Source: a phage. Taken from it: DNA of 24,085 nt. The stretch lies in the NCBI GenBank assembly GCA_031441445.1, contig GCA_031441445.1_4353.1. One strand, given 5' to 3'. The position numbers and the translations under genes are program-made. Positions 5,305-20,972 of this stretch are shown here, piece after piece (the stretch's first letter is position 1; each line of letters opens with the position of its first letter). The notes below the pieces were generated by a model. That model saw only the letters and a list, made by a program, of their open reading frames with translations, did no database searches and was not told where the DNA came from.

Positions 5305-5333
5305 ACTATACTAGTGAACTATTCACGCGTCAA
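5305..5333 (-). promoter_or_regulatory. early promoter with operator-like palindrome (TTGACG-N17-TATAGT, minus strand)
   Basis: -35 is rc of 5328-5333, -10 is rc of 5305-5310; the spacer contains TGAATAGTTCACTAG, a near-perfect copy of the recurring AATAG-N4-CTATT palindrome. Confidence 0.5.
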
Positions 5334-5352
5334 TAACTTCTGCGTGTATGAT

Positions 5353-5508
5353 TTAGTCAGTTATATCGCCGCCGTCTACCAGTGCGATTGGTATTCTCAC
5401 TTCACCGTTGAATGTTTCGGCATACCAGAACTTTTCACACTGCGTTACGCTGAAAACATCGAGTTCTGACGTAGCCCCTGTTTTCCAGTAGATAGTTAAC
5501 TTTTTCAT
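5353..5508 (-). CDS. hypothetical small protein (51 aa, MKKLTIYWKTGATSELDVF...)
   Basis: Below the 60-aa ORF-track cutoff; its ATG overlaps the stop of the upstream ORF (ATGA), indicating translational coupling. Confidence 0.35.
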   Translation of the reverse strand: MKKLTIYWKTGATSELDVFSVTQCEKFWYAETFNGEVRIPIALVDGGDITD

Positions 5509-5741
5509 TCTCCACTCTCCTCTTTAGCAATACGTTGCTCAGTTTTAGTGATACCACGGCGCGTGAATAACACCGGGCTAGTCTTAACGTGCGTCATCAG
5601 ACGATTGTTATAAATTACGTGGCGCTCACAATCAACGTCTTTACTGTACTTAGCAATCGTCATTTCGTTGATACCGGTTTGTCGGCATGTCTCCGCCATC
5701 GTACCAAATTCTTTAATCAGGTTAGGAATGCTGGTAATCAT
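5505..5741 (-). CDS. hypothetical protein with possible helix-turn-helix (EFGTMAETCRQTGINEMTIAKYSKD)
   Basis: ORF track 5505..5765 starts at GTG; the internal ATG at 5741 overlaps the stop of the upstream 56-aa ORF (ATGA) and is preferred. Confidence 0.45.
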   Translation of the reverse strand: MITSIPNLIKEFGTMAETCRQTGINEMTIAKYSKDVDCERHVIYNNRLMTHVKTSPVLFTRRGITKTEQRIAKEESGE

Positions 5742-5908
5742 CCTAAGAAATTCCTCGTTGTCCACATCGCATTCGGGTATTTGTTATCGCGGTCCTGTAC
5801 TACGGCAATCATGTTACCGCGTTGTACCAGGCAGAAGTGCCGCTGCTGCTCGCCGTTGTAGCGACGCCAGATTGCTTCTTCGATTGCCGCGTTGATGTCG
5901 CTGAACAT
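5738..5908 (-). CDS. hypothetical small protein (56 aa, MFSDINAAIEEAIWRRYNGEQQRHF...)
   Basis: Unlisted sub-60-aa ORF; start overlaps the stop of the upstream tiny ORF (TAATG) and its stop overlaps the downstream start (ATGA). Confidence 0.35.
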   Translation of the reverse strand: MFSDINAAIEEAIWRRYNGEQQRHFCLVQRGNMIAVVQDRDNKYPNAMWTTRNFLG

Positions 5909-5991
5909 TAGTATCTACCCCACAGAAATCCAACCAACAGCCCAACGAAGTAACTAAGACCAACCAGACCGATAACCACCTCGAGACTCAT
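5908..5991 (-). CDS. tiny hydrophobic peptide (27 aa, MSLEVVIGLVGLSYFVGLLVGFLWGRY)
   Basis: Single predicted transmembrane helix; GGGGTGAGAG RBS; sits 4 nt after the upstream stop and overlaps the downstream start. Confidence 0.3.
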   Translation of the reverse strand: MSLEVVIGLVGLSYFVGLLVGFLWGRY

Positions 5992-5995
5992 ACTC

Positions 5996-6196
5996 TCACC
6001 CCACTATCTCATCACCGAGCCACGCCGTTTCTCGTATATCGGAAACCACGCAAGCGGCGTGCTCACGGCTAATTGCAAAAATGTAGAAGCTAAACTTCTT
6101 CCCGTCGGCGTCGATGTGGTTAACCGAGTATGGTTTCCACAGGACGCCATCAATAACTACCGGTTCAGGCGCTTTCATCTTCTGGTCCGACAACAT
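5996..6196 (-). CDS. hypothetical protein (66 aa)
   Basis: ORF in the coupled minus-strand early operon. Confidence 0.45.
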   Translation of the reverse strand: MLSDQKMKAPEPVVIDGVLWKPYSVNHIDADGKKFSFYIFAISREHAACVVSDIRETAWLGDEIVG

Positions 6197-6455
6197 TGTC
6201 GTACAGCGGGATTATCACATCAGCCCCATCCTTTGAAGCTGCGGTTGCCGTGTTGTAATAAGCCAGCGAAGAACTGTCTTCACCGACGAACAACCCCGCG
6301 TACACGTTCGGTTCTTGCGTCTTAATAGCCAGTAACTCCTTAAACGCCTCCAGTTGAAACTCACCGTTAATTGACAGTTGCCCGCCTAACGTCTGTTTCT
6401 CTGACTCAAGGACCAGAATACGACGCTCAAGTGACGCGATTGTGATTTTAGGCAT
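6165..6455 (-). CDS. hypothetical protein (about 96 aa)
   Basis: ORF track 6165..6464 starts at GTG; the in-frame ATG at 6455 (MPKITIASLE...) is preferred. Overlaps the stop region of the upstream small ORF. Confidence 0.45.
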   Translation of the reverse strand: MPKITIASLERRILVLESEKQTLGGQLSINGEFQLEAFKELLAIKTQEPNVYAGLFVGEDSSSLAYYNTATAASKDGADVIIPLYDNVVGPEDESA

Positions 6456-6621
6456 TGGTGTCACCTTTGTTCAGGTTGAAGCGGTTAATCAATTCACGAC
6501 GATGCTCCTGTACCACAGATAACGCCTTTTCTAATTCGGCAATCGTCTTGTCGCACTCTTCAATAGCGTACATACCTAGCGCCGACTCTACGCATGCCTT
6601 CTCGTATTCGCGGTCAGTCAT
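6448..6621 (-). CDS. hypothetical small protein (57 aa, MTDREYEKACVESALGMYAIEECDK...)
   Basis: Unlisted ORF; its ATG overlaps the stop of the upstream ORF (ATGA). Confidence 0.35.
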   Translation of the reverse strand: MTDREYEKACVESALGMYAIEECDKTIAELEKALSVVQEHRRELINRFNLNKGDTNA

Positions 6622-6776
6622 TCTTTACGCTCTCCCCACATGCGATTGAGATACTTGTTCTTGTCCGGCCCAGGGAAACTGTTACGTTTCATCAGTTCCT
6701 CGCGTGTCGGGGACGGGGTGTGGCTGACTTTACGGCCTACCCGTAGTGGTTGGCTTACTTGACCTTGTTCGCTCAT
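6618..6776 (-). CDS. hypothetical small basic protein (52 aa, MSEQGQVSQPLRVGRKVSHTPSPTREELMKRN...)
   Basis: Unlisted ORF; ATGA overlaps at both ends (with 6773..6970 upstream and 6448..6621 downstream). Confidence 0.35.
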   Translation of the reverse strand: MSEQGQVSQPLRVGRKVSHTPSPTREELMKRNSFPGPDKNKYLNRMWGERKE

Positions 6777-6970
6777 TCTACAATCTCCCATTTAACGCCG
6801 TGGAAGCCATCACCTTCATCGTTACCAAAGTCTATGAAAATACAGCAGTCGTCGTCGGAGTCTATATAACCGAAACCAGTAGCTGTCGGGTTGTATACAT
6901 CATACACTTTACCCTCTGTCACATAGTCAAGGGCGGCTAACCAGAGAATTTTAGCGGCTTTAACTTTCAT
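6773..6970 (-). CDS. hypothetical acidic protein (65 aa)
   Basis: ORF in the coupled operon; ATGA overlap with the upstream gene. Confidence 0.45.
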   Translation of the reverse strand: MKVKAAKILWLAALDYVTEGKVYDVYNPTATGFGYIDSDDDCCIFIDFGNDEGDGFHGVKWEIVE

Positions 6971-7215
6971 TTCTTCTCTCCTGCATAAGCGGACTTCAGG
7001 GTCTGCATTGCAGCGAACCAGAACGCGTCCGCAGGGATGCTATTGCTCAGGTTACTAACGGCGATGCGTGCCATCAGTTGTGCATCTTTGAATGCTTCGA
7101 TGTCTGTGATTTTCATTGGAAATTTACGCATAGCAACCGGGTCATTACCCATAGTCCATGCGATACATTTGGCTTCAAGTTCCTCGGTTATTGCGATTGT
7201 CTGTACGTTACTCAT
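6967..7215 (-). CDS. hypothetical protein (82 aa), first gene of the early operon
   Basis: ATG at 7215 with ACGGAG RBS; preceded by the promoter at 7249-7277. Confidence 0.5.
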   Translation of the reverse strand: MSNVQTIAITEELEAKCIAWTMGNDPVAMRKFPMKITDIEAFKDAQLMARIAVSNLSNSIPADAFWFAAMQTLKSAYAGEKK

Positions 7216-7248
7216 CTTCTCTACTCCGTTCTCGTTGTCGATGGAGTA

Positions 7249-7277
7249 AATATAATAGGGTCGTAGGTAATAGTCAA
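7249..7277 (-). promoter_or_regulatory. sigma70-like promoter (TTGACT-N17-TATATT) for the minus-strand early operon
   Basis: -35 is rc of 7272-7277, -10 is rc of 7249-7254, 17-bp spacer; about 30 nt upstream of ATG 7215. No operator palindrome in this copy. Confidence 0.5.
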
Positions 7278-7299
7278 CTAGTCATTGCAGAAAATAGAT

Positions 7300-7331
7300 A
7301 AAAAAAATCCCGGCTGGGTCAGGGCCGGGAT
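7300..7331 (-). terminator. rho-independent terminator (minus strand)
   Basis: 8-bp stem ATCCCGGC / GCCGGGAT (7307-7314 / 7324-7331) followed on the minus strand by eight U (A-run 7300-7307 on plus). Confidence 0.6.
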
Positions 7332-7364
7332 AAAACTGGAGAGCAGAGGTATGGAACAGGAGGT
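7300..7364 (-). ncRNA. candidate small RNA (about 65 nt) between promoter 7371-7399 and terminator 7300-7331
   Basis: Promoter, short ORF-free transcript and strong terminator in series; predicted RNA begins ...ACCUCCUGUUCC... (anti-Shine-Dalgarno-like CCUCC). Confidence 0.3.
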
Positions 7365-7370
7365 GATTTA

Positions 7371-7399
7371 AGTATCGTCGGATTAGTCTTAGGTGTCAA
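7371..7399 (-). promoter_or_regulatory. sigma70-like promoter (TTGACA-N17-GATACT) driving the candidate sRNA
   Basis: Perfect -35 (rc of 7394-7399), 17-bp spacer, -10 GATACT (rc of 7371-7376). Confidence 0.35.
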
Positions 7400-7526
7400 C
7401 AGAGATTCTCCGGCACGCGTTACCGCACTTTGGCTCGACCTTGTTACAGGTCCGCGAGGGTGATGATACCCGGAATTCCCTCAATGTTGTTTAATCTTCT
7501 GTTGCCGTTAGTCTATCAAACTACTG

Positions 7527-7559
7527 GCAAAATAAAACCCGGATTCGCGGTCCGGGTTT
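7527..7559 (-). terminator. rho-independent terminator after the lysis cassette
   Basis: 9-bp stem AAACCCGGA / TCCGGGTTT (7535-7543 / 7551-7559) with a 7-nt loop, followed on the minus strand by UAUUUUG; 38 nt downstream of the endolysin stop. Confidence 0.6.
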
Positions 7560-7596
7560 ATGGAGATGCAAGCACAAGCGGCGTATGACGATTATA

Positions 7597-8085
7597 TCAG
7601 CCTTTCACCGCGCGTCCAATAGCAACCGCCTCTTGCCACGGCTTACCGTCGAACAATGCCAGCCGCCCGGCGGTACGGCGGCGCAGGCCGAGTAACGGTT
7701 TGCCGTTCTGGTTGATGAACAGCGCCAGCTTAGCCCGCAGCGTCGCGATGTCACCAGAGCGCAGTGCCTTACCTGTACCGGTAGTAGCTGCGATAACGCC
7801 AGCGCCTGCGTTAAACACAAGGTCACACACGGCGTCGAACTGAGCCTGTGTCAGTGAGTGATGCGCTGCAGCGTCAACGGCGGCTACGGCCTTAGCCATA
7901 TCGCGATTGAGTAGCAGAAGACCCTGGCCGGGCGTGATGGTCTGCCCGGGCTTAACGTCTGGCCCGTAATGCCCGTAGCCAATAGTCAGGTACTTCTCGG
8001 CGGGTGTAGCACGATACGCAGTTCCCCGGAAGCCCTCGAACTCGGCACAAAAATGTAAGCCGTTATCTGAAATGTTTCGAGACAC
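7597..8085 (-). CDS. endolysin, GH24 lysozyme-like (T4 lysozyme / lambda R family)
   Basis: 162-aa ORF with N-terminal catalytic-region motif EFEGFRGTAYRATPAEKYLTIGYGH; GTG start at 8085 with a strong AAGGAGG RBS 8 nt upstream; follows two membrane-protein genes. Confidence 0.75.
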   Translation of the reverse strand: MSRNISDNGLHFCAEFEGFRGTAYRATPAEKYLTIGYGHYGPDVKPGQTITPGQGLLLLNRDMAKAVAAVDAAAHHSLTQAQFDAVCDLVFNAGAGVIAATTGTGKALRSGDIATLRAKLALFINQNGKPLLGLRRRTAGRLALFDGKPWQEAVAIGRAVKG

Positions 8086-8344
8086 GCTTATGTCCTCCTT
8101 TCGACTGGTAATGCAGCCACGACTGACGAATCTGTCGCAGCGCTACCAGGGTAATTAATGTTTCCGGCAGCGTCGGGGACATGCTGCCCTGTAACAAGTG
8201 GATACAACCGGCGGCGCAGACAATAGCTGTCAGGATATAGAGCACCCGGCCAAATAGCCCGTCGTCAACGCTGGGATGATACACATTAAACAGCGATGTG
8301 CCTCCGATTGCCAGCATACCGCAGAACCAGAATAACTCATTCAT
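8063..8344 (-). CDS. lysis-associated membrane protein (holin/antiholin-like, two predicted TM segments)
   Basis: ORF track 8063..8437; the internal ATG at 8344 (MNELFWFCGMLAIGG...) has a GAGGAGG RBS and overlaps the upstream stop by 8 nt; basic C-terminus. Confidence 0.45.
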   Translation of the reverse strand: MNELFWFCGMLAIGGTSLFNVYHPSVDDGLFGRVLYILTAIVCAAGCIHLLQGSMSPTLPETLITLVALRQIRQSWLHYQSKGGHKRVSKHFR

Positions 8345-8645
8345 CCGGGCCTCCTCGACGTGCGATGTATTCTCCGGCGACAATGCCAGAGAGACGGGAA
8401 TAAATTGGCATCCAGAGAATAGCAATGATGAATCCAAGGCCCGCTATTTCGCGTTCACCTGCGATACCGAACCATTGAGCGGCGAGAGGCGCACCGAATA
8501 CGGCGCACGCAAAGCCAGTGGCGAGAAAACAGAGAGCATCGACAGGGCCGGTAATAGTGGCTTTGTGTTGCCGTAAGCCTATTACCCCACCAGCTAATGC
8601 GGCAGCGAGAAGCCACCCCGTCTCTGTTTCAGTAAATTTATCCAA
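8337..8645 (-). CDS. holin-like membrane protein (three predicted TM segments)
   Basis: 102-aa ORF with hydrophobic segments GWLLAAALAGGVIGL, ALCFLATGFACAVFGAPLAA and IAGLGFIIAILWMPIY and a charged C-terminus; TTG start at 8645 with GGAGG SD 7 nt upstream; first gene of the lysis cassette. Confidence 0.55.
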   Translation of the reverse strand: MDKFTETETGWLLAAALAGGVIGLRQHKATITGPVDALCFLATGFACAVFGAPLAAQWFGIAGEREIAGLGFIIAILWMPIYSRLSGIVAGEYIARRGGPDE

Positions 8646-8650
8646 GATGA

Positions 8651-8690
8651 ATCCTCCAGGTGCGTATTAAGTATGCAGTAACTGGAGGAT
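8651..8690 (-). promoter_or_regulatory. RNA hairpin sequestering the holin Shine-Dalgarno
   Basis: Perfect 9-bp inverted repeat ATCCTCCAG (8651-8659) / CTGGAGGAT (8682-8690) with a 22-nt loop; the minus-strand 3' arm contains the holin GGAGG SD. Confidence 0.45.
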
Positions 8691-8720
8691 AGCACGGTTA
8701 GGAATTATCTTAATAACGGT

Positions 8721-9014
8721 TTATTTATGACGCCAGATGTATTGTCGTCTCTGCGGTTTAGTCGGAATATCATCGTATCCGAGCGATTTCCAGTAATTAA
8801 ATAACCGATTAGCGATTGCCGCGCGTTCCTGTGTTTTAAACTCTCCTAGATTCACGGCCTTTCCGTTCTGGAATCCACAGGCGCGGATAGCTTTACGCCG
8901 TTCTTGTATCTCTGGGTACAGCACGTTACGGCGACGCTTGTGTATACGTGTCTTCGCTCTCGGTGACAGCGGCGCAAGGCCGCTTCGTTTCAGGATGTCA
9001 GTTGCTAACGACAT
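8721..9014 (-). CDS. hypothetical basic protein (possible DNA-binding)
   Basis: ORF track 8721..9059; the internal ATG at 9014 overlaps the upstream stop; K/R-rich (RAKTRIHKRRRN); weak resemblance to AP2-type DNA-binding domains, not diagnostic. Confidence 0.4.
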   Translation of the reverse strand: MSLATDILKRSGLAPLSPRAKTRIHKRRRNVLYPEIQERRKAIRACGFQNGKAVNLGEFKTQERAAIANRLFNYWKSLGYDDIPTKPQRRQYIWRHK

Positions 9015-9202
9015 CACTCCACCCCCTCCACATGTGTAACCGACCCACAGTTCGCGCACTCGACGTAATCAGGGTACTGGTCTTTGTATTTCTGTAACTC
9101 AGCTTCAAGTTTCGCGTAATCTTCGTAAAGCACTAACACGCCCTCAACATCAGGAGTAAACCCGAATATCTGGTCGTAGGTATATCTCTGCACCATAATC
9201 AC
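9014..9202 (-). CDS. hypothetical protein (62 aa)
   Basis: ORF coupled to its neighbours by overlapping start and stop. Confidence 0.4.
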   Translation of the reverse strand: MIMVQRYTYDQIFGFTPDVEGVLVLYEDYAKLEAELQKYKDQYPDYVECANCGSVTHVEGVE

Positions 9203-9417
9203 TTCTCCTGTTTACCAAGTCTCTTAGGTGAGCAGATAGCGCGTACCTCTGAATCGTTGGGCTTGTCGCCCTGAAACAGAAAGTGCGCGTTCTCTGCAGC
9301 GCGGGCGGCCGACTGGCACGCCTCCATTGAGTGAAACGTTTCCGATGCTGCGAGTTGCATCTGGCCTGCGGACAATACCCAGATAAATAAGATGCTGGTC
9401 ATTTCTTTAACCCACAT
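9199..9417 (-). CDS. hypothetical secreted or membrane-anchored small protein
   Basis: N-terminal hydrophobic signal-like segment (MTSILFIWVLSAGQMQLAA) and two Cys in the mature part; an alternative start at 9402 would overlap the upstream stop (ATGA). Confidence 0.4.
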   Translation of the reverse strand: MWVKEMTSILFIWVLSAGQMQLAASETFHSMEACQSAARAAENAHFLFQGDKPNDSEVRAICSPKRLGKQEK

Positions 9418-9599
9418 TTAATGTACATACATGGAAACCCGACTCCGTAAAATTGCCATTCGTGTTCACGCTGTTTCTCCTTCCACCGTACCCACATCCG
9501 CTGAACCTCTGGTTCAGCGTAGCCATTGTCTTTCCGGGCCGGGGTGAACCCAAACCGGCTCCGGAACCATATTTCAAACTGCCGCAAAGTAAGTCTCAC
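9399..9599 (-). CDS. hypothetical protein (66 aa)
   Basis: ORF with apparent GTG start overlapping the upstream gene by 26 nt; start uncertain. Confidence 0.35.
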   Translation of the reverse strand: MRLTLRQFEIWFRSRFGFTPARKDNGYAEPEVQRMWVRWKEKQREHEWQFYGVGFPCMYIKCGLKK

Positions 9600-9759
9600 T
9601 TCCTGGTAACTTGAAGCCGTTTTCAGTTCTCACCACGTTCCACTCCATCCCGCCGTGGTACACAACCATGTCTTCTAAATCCAGGTCTATAATGGTTCCT
9701 ACTTTGAAGATGCCTTTAGTCAGTTCACTGTCTCTTTTTGTAACTTTAACTTCTAACAT
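9574..9759 (-). CDS. hypothetical protein (61 aa)
   Basis: ATG at 9759 with GAGGAAAA RBS, downstream of the cassette promoter at 9792-9820. Confidence 0.45.
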   Translation of the reverse strand: MLEVKVTKRDSELTKGIFKVGTIIDLDLEDMVVYHGGMEWNVVRTENGFKLPGSETYFAAV

Positions 9760-9791
9760 TTCGTTTTCCTCTGTCTCGTCTGTGTAAATGA

Positions 9792-9820
9792 ATAGTAGCC
9801 TATTCTATCTTAGTGTGCAA
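9792..9820 (-). promoter_or_regulatory. early promoter cassette (TTGCAC-N17-TACTAT, minus strand) with operator palindrome
   Basis: -35 is rc of 9815-9820, -10 is rc of 9792-9797; palindrome AATAG-TAGC-CTATT at 9791-9804 overlaps the -10; whole cassette to the ATG is homologous to the one at 11022-11090. Confidence 0.5.
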
Positions 9821-9904
9821 GTAAATTTTATTGGTGTTTGTATTGTTGCATCTCCTGCAATAGCCGCTTCGATTGTTGCGTTTGGTGAAATAGAACAAAA
9901 ATGA

Positions 9905-9934
9905 GAAAAATGATACGCTGCTGTGTAGCAGCGT
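9905..9934 (-). terminator. rho-independent terminator (minus strand)
   Basis: Perfect 8-bp stem ACGCTGCT / AGCAGCGT (9915-9922 / 9927-9934) with GTGT loop, followed on the minus strand by AUCAUUUUUCUCAUUUUUG; just after the stop of gene 9938..10177. Confidence 0.6.
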
Positions 9935-9937
9935 AGG

Positions 9938-10177
9938 TCACTCAGTAAAATCCCAAACTATTGTTACAGTATAACATAACACTTCTGGCGGCTCGGGTAA
10001 CGGCATCCAGTGCGTCACGTACTTATCGTAGTTATTCCAGAAAGGCTTTCTCCCGTCATCAGGAACGATGTAATAATCGTGTTGAACTGCGTTATTTAAC
10101 GTTTCATACACCAGGAATTCTTTATCCGTATACCCGTTACCCGGCAGCATCTCACTACACTTAATCCACTCGCCCAT
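9938..10177 (-). CDS. DUF551-like phage protein
   Basis: 79 aa with N-terminal WIKCSEMLPG and C-terminal THWMPLPEPP, as I recall for the DUF551 family (from memory, not searched); a paralog lies at 16029-16286. Confidence 0.5.
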   Translation of the reverse strand: MGEWIKCSEMLPGNGYTDKEFLVYETLNNAVQHDYYIVPDDGRKPFWNNYDKYVTHWMPLPEPPEVLCYTVTIVWDFTE

Positions 10178-10180
10178 AAA

Positions 10181-10324
10181 TCACCCCTTATTCATCACAG
10201 CTTGCGCACCAGCTTTCCACGCCCGCCACGCGAGACGCGTCTTAACGTTCAGGTACTCTTTCTTCGAACCCTTGTTAACCGGCAGACCCTCGACTACGGC
10301 CCATCGTTCGAATGCTTCTCTCAT
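10181..10324 (-). CDS. hypothetical small protein (47 aa, MREAFERWAVVEGLPVNKGSKKEYLNVKTRLAWRAWKAGAQAVMNKG)
   Basis: Unlisted ORF filling the gap between the HNH and DUF551 genes; stop lies 4 nt before the DUF551 ATG. Confidence 0.35.
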   Translation of the reverse strand: MREAFERWAVVEGLPVNKGSKKEYLNVKTRLAWRAWKAGAQAVMNKG

Positions 10325-10327
10325 AAC

Positions 10328-10684
10328 TTAGTCCTCATGATATTTTTCAAACCAGAACACAACCGGGTCAGATTTCATTTCAACCAACCCCATACGAACC
10401 AGCGCTTTGCCTTTCCCGGACGCAAGGAATTCACGACGACCATCACTGATAATTCGCCGATAATCTTCCAGGCTACCGCAATGCTTGTGCAGATTGCATG
10501 GGCGGCATGCCGGAACCATGTTGGATATATCGTCGCGTTCCTGGTGAAGCATATTTCCATCAAAACGAATGACCGGTTTTACATGGTATGCATGCCACTT
10601 TTCACCAAGTTCGCAGCCACAATAAGCACAGCGACCGCCGAACTTCATACGCAATTCTGCTCGTTGTTTTTTAGTTATAGCCAT
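10328..10684 (-). CDS. HNH endonuclease
   Basis: ORF track 10328..10696 starts at GTG; ATG at 10684 preferred. HNH signature CAYCGCEL...WHAYHVKP...NMVPACRPCNLHKH (Cys pairs, His, Asn). Confidence 0.7.
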   Translation of the reverse strand: MAITKKQRAELRMKFGGRCAYCGCELGEKWHAYHVKPVIRFDGNMLHQERDDISNMVPACRPCNLHKHCGSLEDYRRIISDGRREFLASGKGKALVRMGLVEMKSDPVVFWFEKYHED

Positions 10685-10788
10685 ACCAACCCCCACAACG
10701 CGTGCACCGCATAAACGGCGCTGACAATTAAGATAAACGGGTAATTATTCACGGCAACCTCCCTCAGAGTCGTCGGCACTGGCGCCAT
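10675..10788 (-). CDS. tiny hydrophobic peptide (37 aa, MAPVPTTLREVAVNNYPFILIVSAVYAVHALWGLVWL)
   Basis: Unlisted ORF with one predicted TM helix; overlaps the HNH start by 10 nt; no clear SD. Confidence 0.25.
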   Translation of the reverse strand: MAPVPTTLREVAVNNYPFILIVSAVYAVHALWGLVWL

Positions 10789-10805
10789 GATTCGGCGCCG
10801 TGGGT

Positions 10806-11024
10806 TTATTTAAAGTAGATAGCGAATTTCTTGTAACCCGCAGGCTCATTACGAAGCCCCTTACCGATAGCGAAACGTTGTACGTTGTTAAAATCGTTTC
10901 CATCCATACCGTCGGTGCCGAACGTAAAGAAGTTGCGTTTGTTCCCGATAATTACGCGCTCTGAAATATCGATGCCGTAAACTTGTTTGATTGCGGAAAC
11001 TACGCTTGCGGTCGCTTTGTTCAT
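10806..11024 (-). CDS. hypothetical protein (72 aa)
   Basis: ATG at 11024 with AAGGAATTTAGAAATG initiation region (same leader motif as genes at 17616 and 21003); first gene after promoter 11059-11087. Confidence 0.5.
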   Translation of the reverse strand: MNKATASVVSAIKQVYGIDISERVIIGNKRNFFTFGTDGMDGNDFNNVQRFAIGKGLRNEPAGYKKFAIYFK

Positions 11025-11058
11025 TTCTAAATTCCTTATGTCTCGTTTCGATAAGTGA

Positions 11059-11087
11059 ATAGTAACCTATTATGTTGGGGTGTGCAA
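11059..11087 (-). promoter_or_regulatory. early promoter cassette (TTGCAC-N17-TACTAT, minus strand) with operator palindrome
   Basis: -35 is rc of 11082-11087, -10 is rc of 11059-11064; palindrome AATAG-TAAC-CTATT at 11058-11071. Confidence 0.5.
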
Positions 11088-11129
11088 GAGAATAGTTACG
11101 TTGCCGTTGTGATTCTTTCGTTTCTTAAA

Positions 11130-11185
11130 AGAGTACGCAACGCAGTGGGTGGGCGTTAGCCCACCCCAGCGGAGTGAAGTACTCT
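11130..11185. other. nested inverted-repeat element in the divergent intergenic region
   Basis: Inner perfect 8-bp GC-rich stem GGGTGGGC / GCCCACCC (11147-11154 / 11159-11166, GTTA loop) nested in an outer 7-bp stem AGAGTAC / GTACTCT (11130-11136 / 11179-11185). Confidence 0.4.
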
Positions 11186-11421
11186 CTACCTTGCTCACGG
11201 CAACTATAGAAACTTTTAATTATCAGTGACTTGGATATTTAGGCGGGATTAACAATAGACTTTGACCCTTCCGAAAGCGTCAGCGGAACTACACTCAAGT
11301 GCCTAATGGCACGCGTTGCGTTCCCTGCCGCTCCGCGGTCGCTTGCGATATCTCACAAGCTCAGTGAAGCTTAGCATATTTTCAAGTAAAAGTCAATACC
11401 AGTAGCATCTTTTGTATTTTA

Positions 11422-11461
11422 GTAACTTTGCGTGGTGTTTTGGTTGCTTTTACAAAGTTAC
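11422..11461. promoter_or_regulatory. perfect 9-bp inverted repeat upstream of the AlpA-like gene
   Basis: GTAACTTTG (11422-11430) / CAAAGTTAC (11453-11461) separated by 22 bp, 41-80 nt upstream of ATG 11502. Confidence 0.35.
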
Positions 11462-11501: not shown

Positions 11502-11672
11502 ATGACTATCAATGAAGTTGCAGAATTAATCGGCGTCACCCGCCAGACGATCAATAACTGGATTAAGAGTGGAAAGTTTCCTGATTGCAGCGTTAAAGTA
11601 ATGGGGCGCCGTTTACCAGGAACATTTGACCGTAATAAAGTTGAAGCGTGGATTAAGGAGAACGTGAAATGA
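11502..11672 (+). CDS. AlpA/excisionase-like helix-turn-helix DNA-binding protein
   Basis: ORF track 11412..11672; ATG at 11502 with AGGAGA RBS preferred. 56 aa with the HTH signature MTINEVAELIGVTRQTINNWIKSGKFP. Confidence 0.65.
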   Translation: MTINEVAELIGVTRQTINNWIKSGKFPDCSVKVMGRRLPGTFDRNKVEAWIKENVK

Positions 11673-14613: not shown

Positions 14614-14618
14614 AAAGA

Positions 14619-14637
14619 AAGGGGCTTTAAGCCCCTT
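14619..14637 (-). terminator. terminator hairpin for the XRE gene (possibly bidirectional)
   Basis: 7-bp stem AAGGGGC / GCCCCTT around loop TTTAA; the XRE stop codon (14627-14629) lies in the loop; followed on the minus strand by UCUUUUU. Confidence 0.5.
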
Positions 14638-14842
14638 CACCTAACGCCAGCCACTTGGCGTCTACTTCCAGAACTTCCGCCAGTTTGAACAGCGTTGCCG
14701 GGCGGACGTCCTGAGTTACTCCAAGTGCCAGTTGGTTAATCGCGCCCTGGGAAACGCCGGTCAGGGCCGCCAAACGGCGCTGGGAGATGCCGAGTTCTTT
14801 ACGGCGTTGTTCTACACGGGTGCCTAGTTCAGATGGTTGCAT
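14627..14842 (-). CDS. XRE-family (Cro/CI-type) helix-turn-helix transcriptional regulator
   Basis: 71 aa with HTH_3 signature GISQRRLAALTGVSQGAINQLALG; AAGGAG RBS; the only minus-strand gene inside the plus-strand module, with its own promoter and terminator. Confidence 0.8.
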   Translation of the reverse strand: MQPSELGTRVEQRRKELGISQRRLAALTGVSQGAINQLALGVTQDVRPATLFKLAEVLEVDAKWLALGEGA

Positions 14843-14872: not shown

Positions 14873-14886
14873 AATAGTACCATATT
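14873..14886. promoter_or_regulatory. operator-like site O1 overlapping the XRE promoter -10 (AATAG-TACC-ATATT) with extended -10 TGGTACTAT
   Basis: Imperfect copy of the recurring palindrome; minus-strand TGnTACTAT (rc of 14874-14882) serves as an extended -10 for the XRE gene; the -35 is poor. Confidence 0.45.
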
Positions 14887-14906
14887 AATTATTTTAGAAA
14901 AGCCCA

Positions 14907-14935
14907 TTGACATGTGAATAGTTCGCTATTATAGT
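14907..14935 (+). promoter_or_regulatory. early promoter cassette (TTGACA-N17-TATAGT) with operator palindrome
   Basis: -35 14907-14912, -10 14930-14935; palindrome AATAG-TTCG-CTATT at 14917-14930 in the spacer; drives the operon starting at 14964. Confidence 0.55.
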
Positions 14936-14963
14936 TAGCCCATACCAAACGAGAGGGGCAGAT

Positions 14964-15191
14964 ATGAACACAATCACTGGGGCCATAGCTAAAGGTTTTC
15001 GAGCAATTTTCGGCGCTCCGCAAGAAGTGTGCACAAAACATAAATTTGTACTTTCTTGCGTAGTAGGGGATGAGTTTGATGGGTTCGATAAACTTGTTGT
15101 CTGTGACCATTGCGGGCAAGAAGCTATTCAACACTCAAACGGTAAATTTGAACTAATAGACGATAGCCTTACTGAAGGCGACGGTGAGTAA
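14964..15191 (+). CDS. hypothetical small Cys/His-containing protein (possible zinc-binding)
   Basis: 75 aa with C-x3-H ... C-x2-C pattern (CTKHKF...CDHCG); GAGAGGGG RBS. Confidence 0.45.
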   Translation: MNTITGAIAKGFRAIFGAPQEVCTKHKFVLSCVVGDEFDGFDKLVVCDHCGQEAIQHSNGKFELIDDSLTEGDGE

Positions 15192-15215
15192 CTTACACAA
15201 ACAGGAGAGAAACAA

Positions 15216-15716
15216 ATGTTAGAGAAATTCTTAGTATTGCTGGAACGTTTCGTAGTTGCACATGAACTGATTGCCGCGAACAGTGCGAAACAAGTTGTTC
15301 AGGTTGCCACGCCGCTGGAAGTAGAGACGGTATCGTACACCAAAGAAGCGGTAGCTGAGTGCGCTGAAGAAGCAACAAAAGAAATCCCGGTTGAAGGTGA
15401 AGACGTAGTTGACACTAAACCGGCGGAGGAAGAGAAGCCAAAACGCAAGCCGCGTAAAGCTAAAGTAGAGGAACCTGCGCCAGAACCGGAAGAAGAGAAA
15501 GAAGAAGTCGATTACAAGTCTCTGCGTGACCAGATTCAGGCCATCGACGATGCAATTAATGAAGGTCCTAGCGATGCCGCGTGCGATGATTCTGATGAAC
15601 TGCTGGAAGAGTTCACAGGTAAGAAGATGAAGATTGCCGCGATTAAAGACGAAGACCTGGTTGAGTACCTGGAACGCCTGACAGCAATCAAGAACAAGTA
15701 TTTCGAAGAAGAATAA
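15216..15716 (+). CDS. highly acidic low-complexity protein (candidate DNA mimic)
   Basis: 166 aa rich in E/D with a PAEEEKPKRKPRKAKVEEPAPEPEEEKEE segment and EEE C-terminus; CAGGAGAGA RBS. Confidence 0.5.
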   Translation: MLEKFLVLLERFVVAHELIAANSAKQVVQVATPLEVETVSYTKEAVAECAEEATKEIPVEGEDVVDTKPAEEEKPKRKPRKAKVEEPAPEPEEEKEEVDYKSLRDQIQAIDDAINEGPSDAACDDSDELLEEFTGKKMKIAAIKDEDLVEYLERLTAIKNKYFEEE

Positions 15717-15723
15717 CTATCTC

Positions 15724-15742
15724 GCGGCCTTCGGGCCGCTTT
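15724..15742 (+). terminator. UUCG-tetraloop hairpin (weak terminator or attenuator)
   Basis: 6-bp stem GCGGCC / GGCCGC with TTCG loop followed by TTT; between genes 15216..15716 and 15760..16032. Confidence 0.35.
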
Positions 15743-15759
15743 AACTGAGGGTCGGAATT

Positions 15760-16032
15760 ATGATTTACCAACTCTACCGAGCCGTCGACAGGCGGGATAA
15801 CACAGAGGCGCTATGGCTATTGCGTGCTCCGTCCGGTGCGCACCAGATGGAAGAGATGGCGTACTTAGGAAAAGTACCACGGCCTAAAGATATAGGCCGT
15901 CACGTGTCACAGATTAAGCGCACAACTTTCGCCAAGCCTGACTTTTATGTCTTCGAGTCGATGTATGGGTGGGCCATGCACTGCGACCATAAGACACGAC
16001 ATTTAATTGACCAGTGGGAGAACAGGGTATGA
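15760..16032 (+). CDS. hypothetical protein (90 aa)
   Basis: ORF with ATG at 15760; its stop overlaps the downstream ATG (ATGA). Confidence 0.45.
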   Translation: MIYQLYRAVDRRDNTEALWLLRAPSGAHQMEEMAYLGKVPRPKDIGRHVSQIKRTTFAKPDFYVFESMYGWAMHCDHKTRHLIDQWENRV

Positions 16033-16286
16033 ATTGGGTTAGCGTAAACGAAGCACTACCAGAGTCAAAAGATGATTCTGTTTTAGTTTGCTCAGTAGAC
16101 GGAAGTAAATGTGACGATAATGGGTTCCCGGAAGGCGGAATTGATTTTGTGCATATACAGGACTATTTCGACGACATTACTGCTGGGCTGGATGAAAACG
16201 GAAATCAGTTATATACGAAACGGTATATCGAGATGGGTATAACACACTGGATGTATTTACCAGAACTACCGGAGGAGGCTAAATAA
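16029..16286 (+). CDS. DUF551-like phage protein (paralog of 9938..10177)
   Basis: ORF track 16014..16286 starts at GTG; ATG at 16029 preferred. MNWVSVNEALPE N-terminus and THWMYLPELPEE C-terminus parallel the minus-strand paralog. Confidence 0.5.
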   Translation: MNWVSVNEALPESKDDSVLVCSVDGSKCDDNGFPEGGIDFVHIQDYFDDITAGLDENGNQLYTKRYIEMGITHWMYLPELPEEAK

Positions 16287-17527
16287 TGATTCTAAAAGAA
16301 CGAGGCGGCAATAATGATGTACACGCCTTACTGTCACCGTCAGGCGCTAAAAAGTGGCTGTCATGCGCTGCGTCGCTGGCGTGTGAAAAAGATACCCCTA
16401 ACACGTCGGGTAAAGCCGCTGTATTAGGAACCGCCATGCACACCATAGCTGAGGTCCATCTCAACGCCTATATACGCGGCACTGCGTTGCCGTTGGAGCG
16501 TGAAGTCGGCGCTTACGTACTGGATGAAGGCAAAGGTCAGATTAAGGCGCTAATCAGCCCGATGAAAGGCGCGGTACTGATTACGGCGGACATGATTGAG
16601 CAGGTGCGCAAGTACACCGACTACTGCAAAGCGATTATAGACGTAGCGACTTACGCCAAGCTGGAAATGCGTGTCAATCTTACTGAGGTATTGCATCCGG
16701 GGTATGAAGGCGTTGAGACGTTCGGAACCGCTGACCTCGTTGCTGTCCAGGAACTGGCAAACACCGACGAGCACATGCTCATTATCGGCGACCTGAAAAC
16801 CGGGCGGCATCGCGTCGAAGCGAAAGAAAACAAGCAGCTTATGCTTTACGCTCTCGGTGTTTATCGTCGACTCAAGAGACGTTATAACATAACAACCGTT
16901 CGTCTGGTCATCTTCCAGCCTTACGCTGGGGGCGCGACAGAGTGGGACATCTCGGTTGAAGGACTGGAACTGTTCGCTAAGTTCGCACAGAAACGCGCGC
17001 TGTTAGCACTTGATGCATATTTCCGCGGTAAGAAGAACCTGAAAGCGTCAGACTTTAAGCCGTCAGTAGATGGTTGCCAGTGGTGCCGGTTCTCTGAACA
17101 GTGTGCCGCGCGTACAAAGACGGTTAATTCTGTACTGGCGGAAGAACTTGAAGACGACTTTGTGCTGGAACTGACGACGGAGCAACTCGTAGTTGAGTAT
17201 GAGAAGTTGCCGCTGTTGCGCCAGCACATCGACAAGGTTGAGAAAGCTATGGCGGCCGCGTTGCATTCAGGTAAGAAAGTTCCTGGTTACAAGTTGGTTG
17301 AAGGCCGCCCGGGTAATCGTGCATGGAAGGATACCGATGCGGTATTCGAAAAGTACGGTACTATGCTGCAAAAGGTAGTTCTCATGACGCCAACCGAAGC
17401 GGTTAAAGTTGTGCCTGAAGATGAACTGAAAGACTTCATTACACGTAAGCCAGGCGCACCATGTGTCGCAACGGCAGATGACAAACGTCCTGAGTGGAAT
17501 CAGGTTAGTGAAGAAGATTTGGAATAA
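16286..17527 (+). CDS. PD-(D/E)XK nuclease, Cas4/RecB-like with Cys cluster
   Basis: 413 aa. Motifs TADLV, IGDLKTG (D-x-K) and QLMLY (QxxxY); N-terminal Cys (WLSCAASLAC) plus C-terminal CQWCRFSEQC suggest an Fe-S cluster; GGAGGAGG RBS; ends in SEEDLE. Confidence 0.65.
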   Translation: MILKERGGNNDVHALLSPSGAKKWLSCAASLACEKDTPNTSGKAAVLGTAMHTIAEVHLNAYIRGTALPLEREVGAYVLDEGKGQIKALISPMKGAVLITADMIEQVRKYTDYCKAIIDVATYAKLEMRVNLTEVLHPGYEGVETFGTADLVAVQELANTDEHMLIIGDLKTGRHRVEAKENKQLMLYALGVYRRLKRRYNITTVRLVIFQPYAGGATEWDISVEGLELFAKFAQKRALLALDAYFRGKKNLKASDFKPSVDGCQWCRFSEQCAARTKTVNSVLAEELEDDFVLELTTEQLVVEYEKLPLLRQHIDKVEKAMAAALHSGKKVPGYKLVEGRPGNRAWKDTDAVFEKYGTMLQKVVLMTPTEAVKVVPEDELKDFITRKPGAPCVATADDKRPEWNQVSEEDLE

Positions 17528-17531
17528 AGTG

Positions 17532-17560
17532 TTGACACCTGAATAGTTAGCTATTATAGT
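17532..17560 (+). promoter_or_regulatory. early promoter cassette (TTGACA-N17-TATAGT) with operator palindrome
   Basis: -35 17532-17537, -10 17555-17560; palindrome AATAG-TTAG-CTATT at 17542-17555; drives the SSB gene. Confidence 0.55.
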
Positions 17561-17615
17561 TCTAATCACTGGCCGGGCAGCTCCCGGAGTAAACTGAAAA
17601 CTGAGGAATCGAGAA

Positions 17616-18242
17616 ATGGGACTGAAATTAAATCTGCGTAAAGTAAACACTGCTTGGGTTAACGTATTCGAACGCGAAAAAGACCGTGAAAATGATGATG
17701 GTTCAATCACTAAAGGTCAGTACAGCGCGACTATTATCCTGCCGTCCGACCACGCGCAAATCGACGCGCTCTACGACACCGTTTACGCTGTAGTTGAAGA
17801 AGCGTTAGGTGCAGCCGCCGCCGAGAAGTGGATGAAGTCCAACTACGGCGAAGGTAAGCACATGGATAAATGTGCGATTAAAGACATTGCCGAGCGTGAC
17901 AATCCGTTTGAAGACTTCCCGGAAGGCTTCTACTTCAAAGCGAAGGCACAGAAGCAGCCGCTGATTGTAACCTCTAAAAAAGGTGAGACTCAGGTAGAAC
18001 AGGACTTCAATGTAGACGGTGAACAGATTGAAGGTGAACAGGTTTACAGCGGATGCTTAGCTAACGTAAGCGTTGAAATCTGGTTCAGCCAGAAATACAA
18101 AGTCCTCGGCGTTAACCTGCTGGCGATTAAATACGTTGGCGAAGGCAAAGCGTTCGGCGGTTCTAAAGTCGCTGCGAGCGTCAATGACCTGGAAGACGAC
18201 GAAGAAGATGAAGCACCGCGCCGCGAACGTCGCCGCCGCTAA
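17616..18242 (+). CDS. single-stranded DNA-binding protein, T7 gp2.5-like (putative)
   Basis: 208 aa with architecture resembling gp2.5-type SSBs (by recollection, not alignment) and an acidic C-terminal patch DLEDDEEDE followed by RRERRRR; GAGGAATCGAGAAATG initiation region. Confidence 0.5.
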   Translation: MGLKLNLRKVNTAWVNVFEREKDRENDDGSITKGQYSATIILPSDHAQIDALYDTVYAVVEEALGAAAAEKWMKSNYGEGKHMDKCAIKDIAERDNPFEDFPEGFYFKAKAQKQPLIVTSKKGETQVEQDFNVDGEQIEGEQVYSGCLANVSVEIWFSQKYKVLGVNLLAIKYVGEGKAFGGSKVAASVNDLEDDEEDEAPRRERRRR

Positions 18243-18262
18243 TATCTGAATCAATTTAACTA

Positions 18263-18285
18263 AGGCCCTTCATTGGGCCTTTTTA
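18263..18285 (+). terminator. rho-independent terminator between SSB and DNA polymerase genes
   Basis: 7-bp stem AAGGCCC / GGGCCTT with 5-nt loop followed by TTTT. Confidence 0.55.
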
Positions 18286-18301
18286 CTAGGGGTCAAAAAT
18301 A

Positions 18302-20482
18302 ATGAGTTACCTGTTCTTAGACTTTGAAACATTCTCAGAAGCCGATTTGAAGAAAGTCGGTTCTTACGCTTACGCCGAACACCCGTCAACCGAAGTGCTT
18401 ATCTGTACATATGCTTTTGACGACGAACCTGTGCGGGTATGGGATTGCACCGACGGCAGCGACATGCCGGGGGATTTACACCGCGCACTGCGCCGCCTTG
18501 TTAAGCCCAACAGCCGCATCAAGATGGTGTGGCACAACGGTGGACTTTTCGATCGCCTAATCATGAAACACTGCTGGGACTTTGATATTCCGGTAAGTAA
18601 CACCATTGATACTATGATTTGGGCGTTCCGTCACGCGCTGCCGGGTTCTCTTGATGCGCTGTGCGAAGTGCTGGGCGTGTCTGCAGACAACGCGAAAGAT
18701 AAACGCGGCAAGGCTCTGATTAAGCGTTTCTCTAAACCGACGCCGAAGAACTACAAAATCCGCCGCTACACCGCAGAAACTCACCCTGACGAGTGGGCGA
18801 TGTTCATCAGGTACGCCGTGAGCGACATCACTGCGATGCGTGAAGTCTTCCATAAGCTGCCGCGTTGGGGTAACTCCGAGTTCGAAGACCGTGTACTGGA
18901 ACTTGACCAGTTAATCAACGACCGCGGATTTAAGGTTGACGTCGCACTGGCGGAAGCCGCGATTGAAGCCGTAGAGAAGCACAAGGCACAGTTACAGGAA
19001 GAAGCTCAACGTAAATACGGCGGCTCGCTTACCGGTAAAGACTTCCTTCCGATTCTGCGTGAACTTGCGCCCGCGCACCGCATACACAATGCACAGAAGT
19101 CGACGCTTAACGACCTGTTGGCAGATGATGATTTACCGGACGACGCCCGGATGATTATCGAAATGCGCCTCGGGGCCGCGTCAACAGCGTCCACGAAATA
19201 TAACCCGCTGCTGTTAGGCCGCTCGTCGGACGACCGACGCCGCGGTTGTATCCAGTACGGTGGGGCAAAGCGTACGTTACGGTTCGCGGGTAAAGGCTTC
19301 CAGCCACAGAACCTGGCGCGTGGGTACTATCACGATGATGAACTGGATAAAGGCATTTCAGCGTTACTTAAGGGCCGGGCGCACCGCCGATTTGACGTAG
19401 CCAAGCTGACGGCATCTACCGTTCGTAGCTGCATTATACCGGAAGCTGGGCATAAGTTTGTCGTCGCCGATTACTCTAACGTTGAGGGTCGCGGGCTTGC
19501 GTGGCTGGCAGGCGAAGAAACCGCGCTAGATACGTTCCGCGCCGGACTGGATATTTACTGCGTAACAGCAGGTAAGATGTTTGGCATGGAGCCGGATTAC
19601 ATTAAGAAAGAACGTAAAGACTTACGCCAGATTGGTAAAGCCTGCGAATTGGGCCTCGGATACGCGGGCGGTGTCGGTGCTTTCGTTCAGTTCGCCAAGA
19701 ACCTCGGCCTTGACCTTGTAGATATGGCAAAAACAATGGATGGGACTTTCCCTGACCACATCTGGGCCGCTACCGCGCGCGGGTACGAGTGGGCGCGTAT
19801 TCAGGAAGCCAAGCGACCACCGCGTCCGGGTGAAAAGGATGACCGACCATCATATATTCTTGATAAGAAAGTCTGGCGTACATGCGACGCAATTAAGCGT
19901 ATGTGGCGGGAGTCCCACCCGGAAACAGTAGCTTTCTGGCGTGATATTGAAGACGCAGCTATGGCAGCAATCCGTAATCCGGGGAAAGAGTTCACCGCTG
20001 GCCCTCGCGGGGTTAAGTTTTCTCGCAACGTAGAAACAGACAATAACGGCAACAAAGTCGCTGGTTGGTGGTTGCGCATGACGTTGCCGTCAGGTCGCGT
20101 TATGTCATACCCGGGCGTCGGGTTGAGCGTGTCAAAAGAGACAGACGAAGACGGAAAAGTTTCTACTAACGTGCGCATCAAGTATCAGGGTGAAAATCAG
20201 TTAACCAGGCAGTGGGGCTTCCAGTACACCTACTCCGGTAAACTGGTGGAAAACTGCACTCAGGCACTGTGCCGTGACTTGCTGGCTAATGCGCTACTTA
20301 ACGTTGAAGCAAACGGCTACCCGATTGTACTTCACGTACACGATGAGATTATCTGCGAGACACCGGATTCGCCTGAATACAATGTGGCGGAACTCGAACG
20401 ATTGATGTGTGAATTACCAGACTGGGCTAAGGGGTTCCCTTTGGTTGCAGAAGGTGCGGAGATGAAGCGTTATGCTAAGTAA
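18302..20482 (+). CDS. DNA polymerase, family A, with 3'-5' exonuclease domain
   Basis: 726 aa. Exo I motif LDFETFS; polymerase motif A ADYSNVEGRGLAWLAGEE, motif B RQIGKACELGLGYAGG, motif C VLHVHDEIICE; AGGGG RBS. Confidence 0.85.
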   Translation: MSYLFLDFETFSEADLKKVGSYAYAEHPSTEVLICTYAFDDEPVRVWDCTDGSDMPGDLHRALRRLVKPNSRIKMVWHNGGLFDRLIMKHCWDFDIPVSNTIDTMIWAFRHALPGSLDALCEVLGVSADNAKDKRGKALIKRFSKPTPKNYKIRRYTAETHPDEWAMFIRYAVSDITAMREVFHKLPRWGNSEFEDRVLELDQLINDRGFKVDVALAEAAIEAVEKHKAQLQEEAQRKYGGSLTGKDFLPILRELAPAHRIHNAQKSTLNDLLADDDLPDDARMIIEMRLGAASTASTKYNPLLLGRSSDDRRRGCIQYGGAKRTLRFAGKGFQPQNLARGYYHDDELDKGISALLKGRAHRRFDVAKLTASTVRSCIIPEAGHKFVVADYSNVEGRGLAWLAGEETALDTFRAGLDIYCVTAGKMFGMEPDYIKKERKDLRQIGKACELGLGYAGGVGAFVQFAKNLGLDLVDMAKTMDGTFPDHIWAATARGYEWARIQEAKRPPRPGEKDDRPSYILDKKVWRTCDAIKRMWRESHPETVAFWRDIEDAAMAAIRNPGKEFTAGPRGVKFSRNVETDNNGNKVAGWWLRMTLPSGRVMSYPGVGLSVSKETDEDGKVSTNVRIKYQGENQLTRQWGFQYTYSGKLVENCTQALCRDLLANALLNVEANGYPIVLHVHDEIICETPDSPEYNVAELERLMCELPDWAKGFPLVAEGAEMKRYAK

Positions 20483-20603
20483 ACTGATTGTTACAGCACT
20501 GGCGGGATTCGCCGCCGGTGTCTACTGTCACGGGGGGCAATACGGCATGATGGTAGCCGTATTGGGTATGTTCATCGCAATTTATCTGTGGGTGCCGGAA
20601 TGA
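20472..20603 (+). CDS. small hydrophobic peptide (43 aa, MLSKLIVTALAGFAAGVYCHGGQYGMMVAVLGMFIAIYLWVPE)
   Basis: Unlisted ORF overlapping the 3' end of the polymerase gene by 11 nt; its stop overlaps the next ATG (ATGA). Confidence 0.3.
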   Translation: MLSKLIVTALAGFAAGVYCHGGQYGMMVAVLGMFIAIYLWVPE

Positions 20604-20698
20604 AAATTTACTGGTTTTATGAGGAAGACTGCCGAATCTGTCCGCGCTGCGGTATTGAGCATACGAAACGTGAGGGGTGTATAGATGAGTACGCCTGA
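20600..20698 (+). CDS. small Cys-rich peptide (32 aa, MKIYWFYEEDCRICPRCGIEHTKREGCIDEYA)
   Basis: Unlisted ORF with C-x2-C-x2-C ... C pattern; coupled to the upstream peptide; overlaps the VRR-NUC start. Confidence 0.25.
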   Translation: MKIYWFYEEDCRICPRCGIEHTKREGCIDEYA

Positions 20699-20972
20699 GG
20701 GGCGCATACAGAAATACGCAAAAGAGCGATTCGAGGCCCTCGGTGGCCTCGTTCGCAAGCTCTCCTACGAAGGACGTTCCGGCGCTCCCGACCTGCTGGT
20801 AATTCTCCCCGGCGGTATCATCTGGTTTGTCGAGGTTAAGAAAGACGAAAACACGAAGCCAGACCCGCACCAGTTACGTGAGCATGAGCGGATGCGTAAA
20901 CGCGGTGCAAATGTTTTTGTCGTTGGTTCGTTTAAACAGGTTGACGACCTAATAGCAAACTATTATAGTTAG
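20685..20972 (+). CDS. VRR-NUC domain nuclease
   Basis: 95 aa with PD-(D/E)XK core GAPDLLVILPGGIIWFVEVKK; GTGAGGGG RBS. Confidence 0.7.
   Translation: MSTPEGRIQKYAKERFEALGGLVRKLSYEGRSGAPDLLVILPGGIIWFVEVKKDENTKPDPHQLREHERMRKRGANVFVVGSFKQVDDLIANYYS
20941..20969 (+). promoter_or_regulatory. early promoter cassette (TTGACG-N17-TATAGT) with operator palindrome, inside the 3' end of the VRR-NUC gene
   Basis: -35 20941-20946, -10 20964-20969; palindrome AATAG-CAAA-CTATT at 20951-20964; downstream leader matches the cassette at 14930-14945. Confidence 0.5.

Follow-up and report, generated by a model that had tools for sequence, protein, structure and literature searches.

An AATAG-N4-CTATT palindrome recurring in predicted promoters of a Kagunavirus, a probable operator for a small 434 Cro-like XRE protein

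We examined a 24,085-nucleotide stretch of phage DNA (contig GCA_031441445.1_4353.1 of assembly GCA_031441445.1; this whole stretch is called the window below) in which a 14-bp palindrome, AATAG-N4-CTATT, recurs within sigma70-like promoters on both strands. The reading of this palindrome as an operator is well supported by comparative evidence, and it is probably bound by a dimer of the phage's own XRE protein, a helix-turn-helix (HTH) protein of 71 amino acids, which would repress the promoters concerned and regulate its own gene. XRE as the binder, repression as the effect, and the timing of both are what we infer from the arrangement described here. By megablast, the window belongs to the genus Kagunavirus of the subfamily Guernseyvirinae, that is, to the K1G-like virulent siphophages of Escherichia coli, and its best matches are phiEc4, K-01, and SHAK7858, to which it is 93–95% identical.

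Exact copies of the palindrome (AATAGNNNNCTATT) start at positions 9791, 11058, 14917, 17542, and 20951, five in all against 0.01 expected, and none of 100 shuffled sequences reached five. With up to one mismatch allowed, the window holds nine copies against 0.64 expected, the additional ones being at 1391, 5310, 7269, and 14873, and eight of the nine overlap predicted sigma70-like promoters. The recurrence reported in the first-pass annotation of this DNA is therefore real, and the scan of relatives that it proposed gives the same picture. SHAK7858, the complete genome of the closest relative, has 12 copies with no more than one mismatch (1.21 expected), and in 37 Kagunavirus sequences 154 of the 162 exact copies are preceded by TTGAC or TTGCA, placed either 4–5 nt or 10 nt upstream. 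The two arms of the exact copies in the window are always unlike at position 6, one reading AATAGT and the other AATAGC or AATAGG. SHAK7858 also has a fully symmetric copy, AATAGTTTACTATT, at L005:37801-37814 (L005 being our locus number for this genome), which lies outside promoters, at a gene end just before a terminator. We note in passing that SHAK7858 (OR594183.1) is filed as Autographiviridae/Kayfunavirus, though it is a Kagunavirus.

A promoter scan recovered sigma70-like promoters with 17-bp spacers, and the palindrome sits in these and in two TTGCAC-type promoters in one of three arrangements. In the first, which is found in four promoters, TTGACR is followed by four nucleotides and then the palindrome, whose last T starts the −10 hexamer TATAGT. 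These are the plus-strand promoters TTGACA-17-TATAGT at 14907..14935, with 11 of 12 consensus matches (palindrome AATAGTTCGCTATT, 14917..14930, exact), TTGACA-17-TATAGT at 17532..17560 (palindrome AATAGTTAGCTATT, 17542..17555, exact), and TTGACG-17-TATAGT at 20941..20969 (palindrome AATAGCAAACTATT, 20951..20964, exact), together with the minus-strand promoter P5333, TTGACG-17-TATAGT at 5305..5333, whose spacer holds a copy with one mismatch at 5310..5323 (AATAGTTCACTAGT when read on the minus strand). The second arrangement, TTGCAC-N10-palindrome, occurs in the two minus-strand promoters P11087 (11059..11087) and P9820 (9792..9820), both TTGCAC-17-TACTAT, where the −10 hexamer TACTAT lies within the right arm; the palindromes are AATAGTAACCTATT (11058..11071) and AATAGTAGCCTATT (9791..9804), both exact. 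In the third, a one-mismatch copy, AATAGTCAACTAGT at 7269..7282, covers the −35 hexamer of the minus-strand promoter P7277 (TTGACT-17-TATATT, 7249..7277). This last promoter had been described as lacking the palindrome and perhaps escaping control, which does not stand; it is the candidate promoter of the AlpA-like/helicase-primase operon (TTGCTT-17-TATACT) that truly lacks the palindrome. An inverted repeat of another kind, TAACTTTG-N23-CAAAGTTA at 11423-11461, overlaps that candidate promoter.

The remaining copies are the one just upstream of the XRE gene, which is described with its locus below, and the palindrome-like AATAGCATACTATA at 1391..1404. The latter has one mismatch, lies outside any promoter, straddles the start codon of a head-morphogenesis gene, and directly follows a terminator-like hairpin; the same sequence is found in SHAK7858 at 2743. 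We doubt that it belongs with the others; a single match of this kind can be accounted for by chance (0.64 expected).

For the comparison with relatives, we used 76 related loci from IMG/VR, collected via an alignment of the XRE protein, and seven complete genomes. Conservation percentages refer to orthologous sites in 36–44 Kagunavirus and Jerseyvirus sequences and, because these sequences are kin, should be read as descriptive and not as independent tests. Conservation reaches 98.0% over the ten arm positions, against 85.1% over the four central ones and 82.3% over the flanks (±40 bp). At the 14917 copy, hereafter O1, the arms are invariant (100%) among 36 distinct orthologues and the centre varies (TTCG, TTAG, TTCA, TTTG); at the 20951 copy, arms and centre are conserved at 99% and 62%, respectively, over 41 distinct sequences, with CGAA, AACA, CGAG, CGGA, CTAG, and CAAA all found between fixed arms. 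The promoters of Jersey, AH01, Tsm2, phiEap-2, and TS33 that are orthologous to the one around 17542 hold a palindrome-like 14-mer at the same place.

Imperfect copies can be conserved as such. The form with one mismatch upstream of the XRE gene (hereafter O2) is kept in 37 of 38 orthologues, and the 7269 copy is imperfect in most of its orthologues, 25 of which have the same 14-mer and 13 other imperfect variants. At 5310, seven of eight orthologues have a perfect palindrome and the mismatch is private to the window, so operator quality fails to separate packaging from replication promoters; imperfect operators were considered as a mark of late promoters, a reading rejected on this ground.

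Across the subfamily, the palindrome starts 4 nt, 7 nt (AH01 and phiEap-2), or 10 nt after the −35 hexamer, and in one case lies directly over it, and these several registers indicate that it is separable from the core promoter. Since its arms are kept while its centre drifts, and since it shifts relative to the hexamers, the palindrome is not part of the sigma70 recognition sequence. The proposal that a single dimeric regulator acts on these promoters fits such a separate, selected, dyad-symmetric element.

More distant lineages prefer symmetric variants of their own. An unbiased count of palindromes returned AATAG-N4-CTATT for Kagunavirus, TAATAG-N4-CTATTA for Jerseyvirus, and AATAC-N4-GTATT for Pantoea phage AH01; in GC-rich relatives, noise from coding sequences swamped such counts, and promoter-anchored scans were therefore used. 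A metagenomic lineage, represented by loci L069 and L073, has TTAGC-N2-GCTAA at the same position in the spacer (6831, 14523, and 16413 in L069; 7319, 14545, and 16485 in L073) and an XRE helix reading SQGYISHL. We take TTAGC-NN-GCTAA to be equal to the SlyA/RovA consensus TTAGCAAGCTAA, and a host factor could possibly bind at these sites in L069 and L073. One arm sequence is common to all copies within a genome, which argues for sequence-specific reading by a dimer and not for a generic hairpin.

Klebsiella phage VLCpiS11a has no such palindrome and possesses the most divergent XRE recognition helix. A different repeat, aatGTTGGTTGCAAt, lies around −35 hexamers in VLCpiS11a (locus L008; 1933, 4792, 19000, and 34811) and Tsm2 (locus L004; 208 and 6722), that is, in phages with few or no AATAG palindromes.

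The XRE gene (14627..14842, minus strand) encodes an HTH_3 protein (Pfam, 3.9e-13) that matches 434 Cro and the 434 repressor in the PDB at about 5e-6 with phmmer. Its AlphaFold2 model has five helices (pLDDT, the predicted local distance difference test score, 84), and Foldseek aligns this model with 434 Cro (2cro/3cro), C.BclI, C.AhdI, SinR, and P22 C2 at a TM-score of about 0.8; 434 Cro and the DNA-binding domain of the 434 repressor are its nearest solved relatives (38–40% identity in structural alignment). Every lineage examined has exactly one copy of XRE, and no other HTH protein is common to them all. The gene itself was left unannotated in the K1G and K1ind records (those concerned are GU196277.1 and GU196279-81). 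In a low-resolution RNA-seq time course of a Kagunavirus (PMC12645636), an HTH gene (gene 008) is among only four early-peaking genes; judging by gene order only, it may be XRE.

The layout of the locus points to the same protein. XRE is divergent from the rightward replication operon, and O1 is common to both promoters, lying in the spacer of the rightward promoter at 14907..14935 and over the −35 hexamer of the candidate XRE promoter (TTCACA-16-TAAAAT, 14891..14918, minus strand, 10 of 12 consensus matches), whose 16-bp spacer is the exception among the palindrome-bearing predicted promoters. O2 (AATAGTACCATATT, 14873..14886) lies just downstream of the candidate −10 hexamer and just upstream of the XRE gene, 44 bp from O1 centre to centre. 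In AH01, the XRE locus likewise has these two sites in the same layout, with arms of that phage's AATAC type.

The transcription units that follow these promoters were named in part from homologues: annotations of homologues for the SSB/DNA polymerase unit, those of K1G and SHAK7858 for the lysis unit, and those of SHAK7858 and Jersey for the P5333 unit. The plus-strand genes of the window form two blocks, an AlpA-like gene followed by a helicase-primase, and a replication/recombination block with the DUF2800 exonuclease, a Gp2.5-like single-stranded DNA-binding protein (SSB), the DNA polymerase, and an SNF2 helicase. In the second block, the promoter at 14907 leads the unit at 14964-17527, which contains small open reading frames (ORFs), a DUF551 protein, and a DUF2800/PD-(D/E)XK exonuclease by Pfam; that at 17532 leads the SSB (17616-18242), the DNA polymerase (18302-20482), and a VRR-NUC protein; and that at 20941 leads an ORF at 21003-21197, the SNF2 helicase (21194-22624), and a Toprim-like protein. 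As had been proposed, the palindrome thus precedes both the SSB gene and the operon to which the SNF2 helicase belongs.

The minus-strand block combines the genes for head, portal, and terminase with the lysis cassette and with numerous small ORFs. Here, P11087 leads the unit at 11024-9938, with small ORFs and an HNH-type ORF; P9820 leads the unit at 9759-7597, with a Gp54-like ORF, several small ORFs, holins, and an endolysin; P7277 leads ten small ORFs (7215-5353), including that of a NinH-like protein; and P5333 leads an ORF of 76 amino acids, the terminase small and large subunits, the portal, and head-morphogenesis genes. The earlier restriction of the palindrome to early promoters fails, because the lysis cassette lies behind P9820, and the genes for terminase, portal, and head lie behind P5333. 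The first gene of the P9820 unit (9574-9759, minus strand, 61 amino acids) matches PF25180, "Phage antiviral trigger protein Gp54," at 3.7e-27.

Downstream of many palindrome-bearing promoters there is a leader box (CGAAACGAGA / CCAAACGAGAGG / ACACCAAC; 14936-14960, 11035-11055, 9765-9788, and 20970-21000), which also occurs in this position in several genera. It may be a conserved signal for translation initiation or processing, or the trace of promoter-leader cassettes that spread as units.

A strong minus-strand promoter of another kind, TTGACT-17-TAAGCT, opens an ORF-free stretch of about 250 nt at 11396-11120 that ends near a GC-rich hairpin, GGGGTGGGCTAACGCCCACCCC. SHAK7858 has a paralogous copy of this promoter and its first 60 nt or so ahead of its spanin, scaffold, and capsid genes (L005:4646-4720, plus strand). 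Possible readings are a non-coding RNA and a shared leader; no Rfam match was returned for the element or for the whole window. Short repeats are also found throughout the complete genomes, where 10-mers such as CAACGGCAAC and AACGGCAGCA occur five to eight times per genome in every genus.

If the palindrome is an operator, one has to ask which protein binds it, and several points weigh against XRE. Between Kagunavirus and Jerseyvirus it is only 48% identical, which makes it the most divergent shared protein (its neighbours are 73–98% identical), and its recognition helix reads SQGAINQL in one genus and SQSLITHL in the other, yet both have AATAG. No simple rule connects helix-3 residues with bases across about nine lineages, and in the absence of such a recognition code the assignment to XRE rests on distribution, locus architecture, and fold. 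The covariation is loose, since G, C, and T all occur at the fifth position of the arm in phiEap-2 and TS33. Finally, a repressor placed over most predicted promoters, including those for lysis and packaging, has no obvious role in a lytic programme. By our own count, 24 of 41 residues are conserved in the N-terminal, DNA-binding half of the Kagunavirus/Jerseyvirus alignment, a higher degree of conservation than in the C-terminal half.

Could the operator belong to some other phage protein? The first-pass annotation had named XRE and the AlpA-like protein together as candidate binders, and distribution across relatives favours the former and speaks against the latter. The AlpA/excisionase-like protein (11502..11672, plus strand; Pfam HTH_17, 3.2e-10) carries a MerR-like domain, and proteins of the MerR type bind within the spacers of promoters; it is also 77% identical between the two genera that share AATAG, against the 48% of XRE. 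However, it is found only in Kagunavirus and Jerseyvirus and is absent, even by iterative hidden Markov model search, from AH01, Tsm2, TS33, phiEap-2, and VLCpiS11a, and of these AH01, phiEap-2, and Tsm2 carry palindromes all the same. The spacers, moreover, are of the optimal 17 bp (16 bp at the candidate XRE promoter) and not of the 19–20 bp on which MerR-type activators act. The NinH-like protein (5505-5765) is likewise missing from AH01 and Tsm2, and an ORF of 112 amino acids at 8721-9059, called a DNA-binding protein in the AH01 record, has no Pfam domain and comes and goes among the phages without relation to the palindromes. With an unrecognised small protein counted in, we consider this whole group of binders unlikely. 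A conserved enterobacterial transcription factor of the host, which would tie the phage promoters to host physiology, could explain why phages of E. coli, Salmonella, and Serratia have AATAG arms in common although their XRE recognition helices diverge; but no host factor could be matched to AATAG-N4-CTATT, each phage lineage prefers its own variant, the two-site arrangement stands exactly at the phage's own XRE gene, and a geometry of 14 bp suits an HTH dimer of the 434 type, so that a host protein seems quite unlikely.

It is also conceivable that nothing dedicated binds, and that the palindrome is a by-product of a mirrored −10 of the AATAGT/TATAGT kind or of a promoter-leader cassette that was duplicated. 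The TTGCAC-type promoters do take their −10 hexamer from one arm, TATAGT in the TTGACR-type begins with the final T of the palindrome, and P11087 and P9820 may be duplicates, since they share their flanks as well as the leader box. What makes this very unlikely is that four promoters have the palindrome in the spacer, where sigma70 reads little, and still keep the arms at 98–100% while the centre drifts; that the palindrome stands at four different registers; and that other lineages have changed both arms symmetrically. The published record has still another view. PHIRE found seven copies in fBC-Eco01, with the consensus tgAATAGTa-ccTATTat-T, and these were called "phage RNAP promoters" (RNAP, RNA polymerase; PMC9825357); seven PHIRE promoters are also reported in the Golestan paper. 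Since none of these genomes, including the seven complete ones of the subfamily, has an annotated gene for a phage RNA polymerase, the label is wrong, and promoters of a phage-encoded polymerase, possibly in the form of DNA hairpins, are extremely improbable. The copies are framed by sigma70 hexamers at 17-bp spacing, and the predicted DNA hairpins are marginal (−1.8 to −3.7 kcal/mol), for which reason a hairpin or cruciform element was rejected. In the literature we found neither a reading of the motif as an operator nor any connection of it with XRE.

With XRE as the probable binder, the circuit would work as follows. An XRE dimer would place one recognition helix in each AATAG arm, leaving the central 4 bp without direct reading. 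Given their near-consensus hexamers and 17-bp spacers, the predicted promoters should fire without an activator, and a dimer placed over the −35 and −10 hexamers or between them would compete with the host RNA polymerase and exclude it. XRE made on infection would then turn down roughly ten operator-bearing transcription units and subsequently limit its own synthesis through O1, common to both promoters, and O2, beside its own −10.

Most of the recognisable sigma70 promoters, those for replication, lysis, and packaging among them, carry the probable operator. That a presumed strictly virulent phage could therefore silence most of its genome at once, via Cro/cI-like operators, is a long shot; if true, it could allow a reversible dormant or carrier state, or immunity of an infected cell against superinfecting relatives, without integration machinery.

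Kagunaviruses and Jerseyviruses belong to the most frequently isolated phages for therapy and food biocontrol, against E. coli K1 and Salmonella, and their transcription programme is essentially uncharacterised. Reading the motif as an operator within promoters of the host type, in place of a phage-polymerase promoter, puts published annotations right and offers a testable wiring diagram with one small repressor and about ten promoters. The operator variants (AATAG, AATAC, and TTAGC) and the divergent recognition helices also constitute a natural set for studying how HTH specificity evolves.

Among known systems, mycobacteriophages L5 and Bxb1 provide a precedent for genome-wide control by one phage repressor acting at many dispersed short sites. 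Their stoperators are asymmetric 13-bp sites that, in an orientation-dependent manner, halt elongation in transcribed intergenic regions of a temperate phage, whereas the sites described here are palindromic and lie within promoters. N4-type hairpin promoters offer no parallel, in view of the weak hairpins and the lack of an annotated RNA polymerase gene. The C proteins C.BclI and C.AhdI, which are the top structural matches of the XRE model, are likewise small HTH_3 dimers with dyad operators over their own promoter and paired strong and weak sites for autoregulation; they differ in that they control a single restriction-modification operon and act first as activators, while here there is no adjacent restriction-modification system and about ten promoters are involved.

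Phage 434 is also close: the 14-bp operators recognised by its Cro and repressor have outer bases that are conserved and a centre that varies. A lambdoid lysis-lysogeny switch is not indicated: the phage is virulent, XRE with its 71 amino acids has no room for a C-terminal peptidase domain, only two sites, O1 and O2, and not three are present at the regulator locus, and no integrase is annotated in the complete relatives. The arm sequence (AATAG) is different as well, and about ten further copies are spread across the genome, including some ahead of lysis and packaging genes. What is shared is the kind of protein and the kind of site. 434 Cro also has 71 amino acids and the same five-helix HTH_3 fold; the 434 operators (ACAA-N6-TTGT at OR/OL) are 14-bp dyads with conserved outer arms around a variable centre; they overlap the −35 and −10 hexamers of sigma70 promoters, as the palindromes do with predicted ones; and the regulator gene is divergent from an operon with which it shares operators, the weaker site being on its own side. 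The proposed circuit is therefore of a well-known kind and not a new mechanism.

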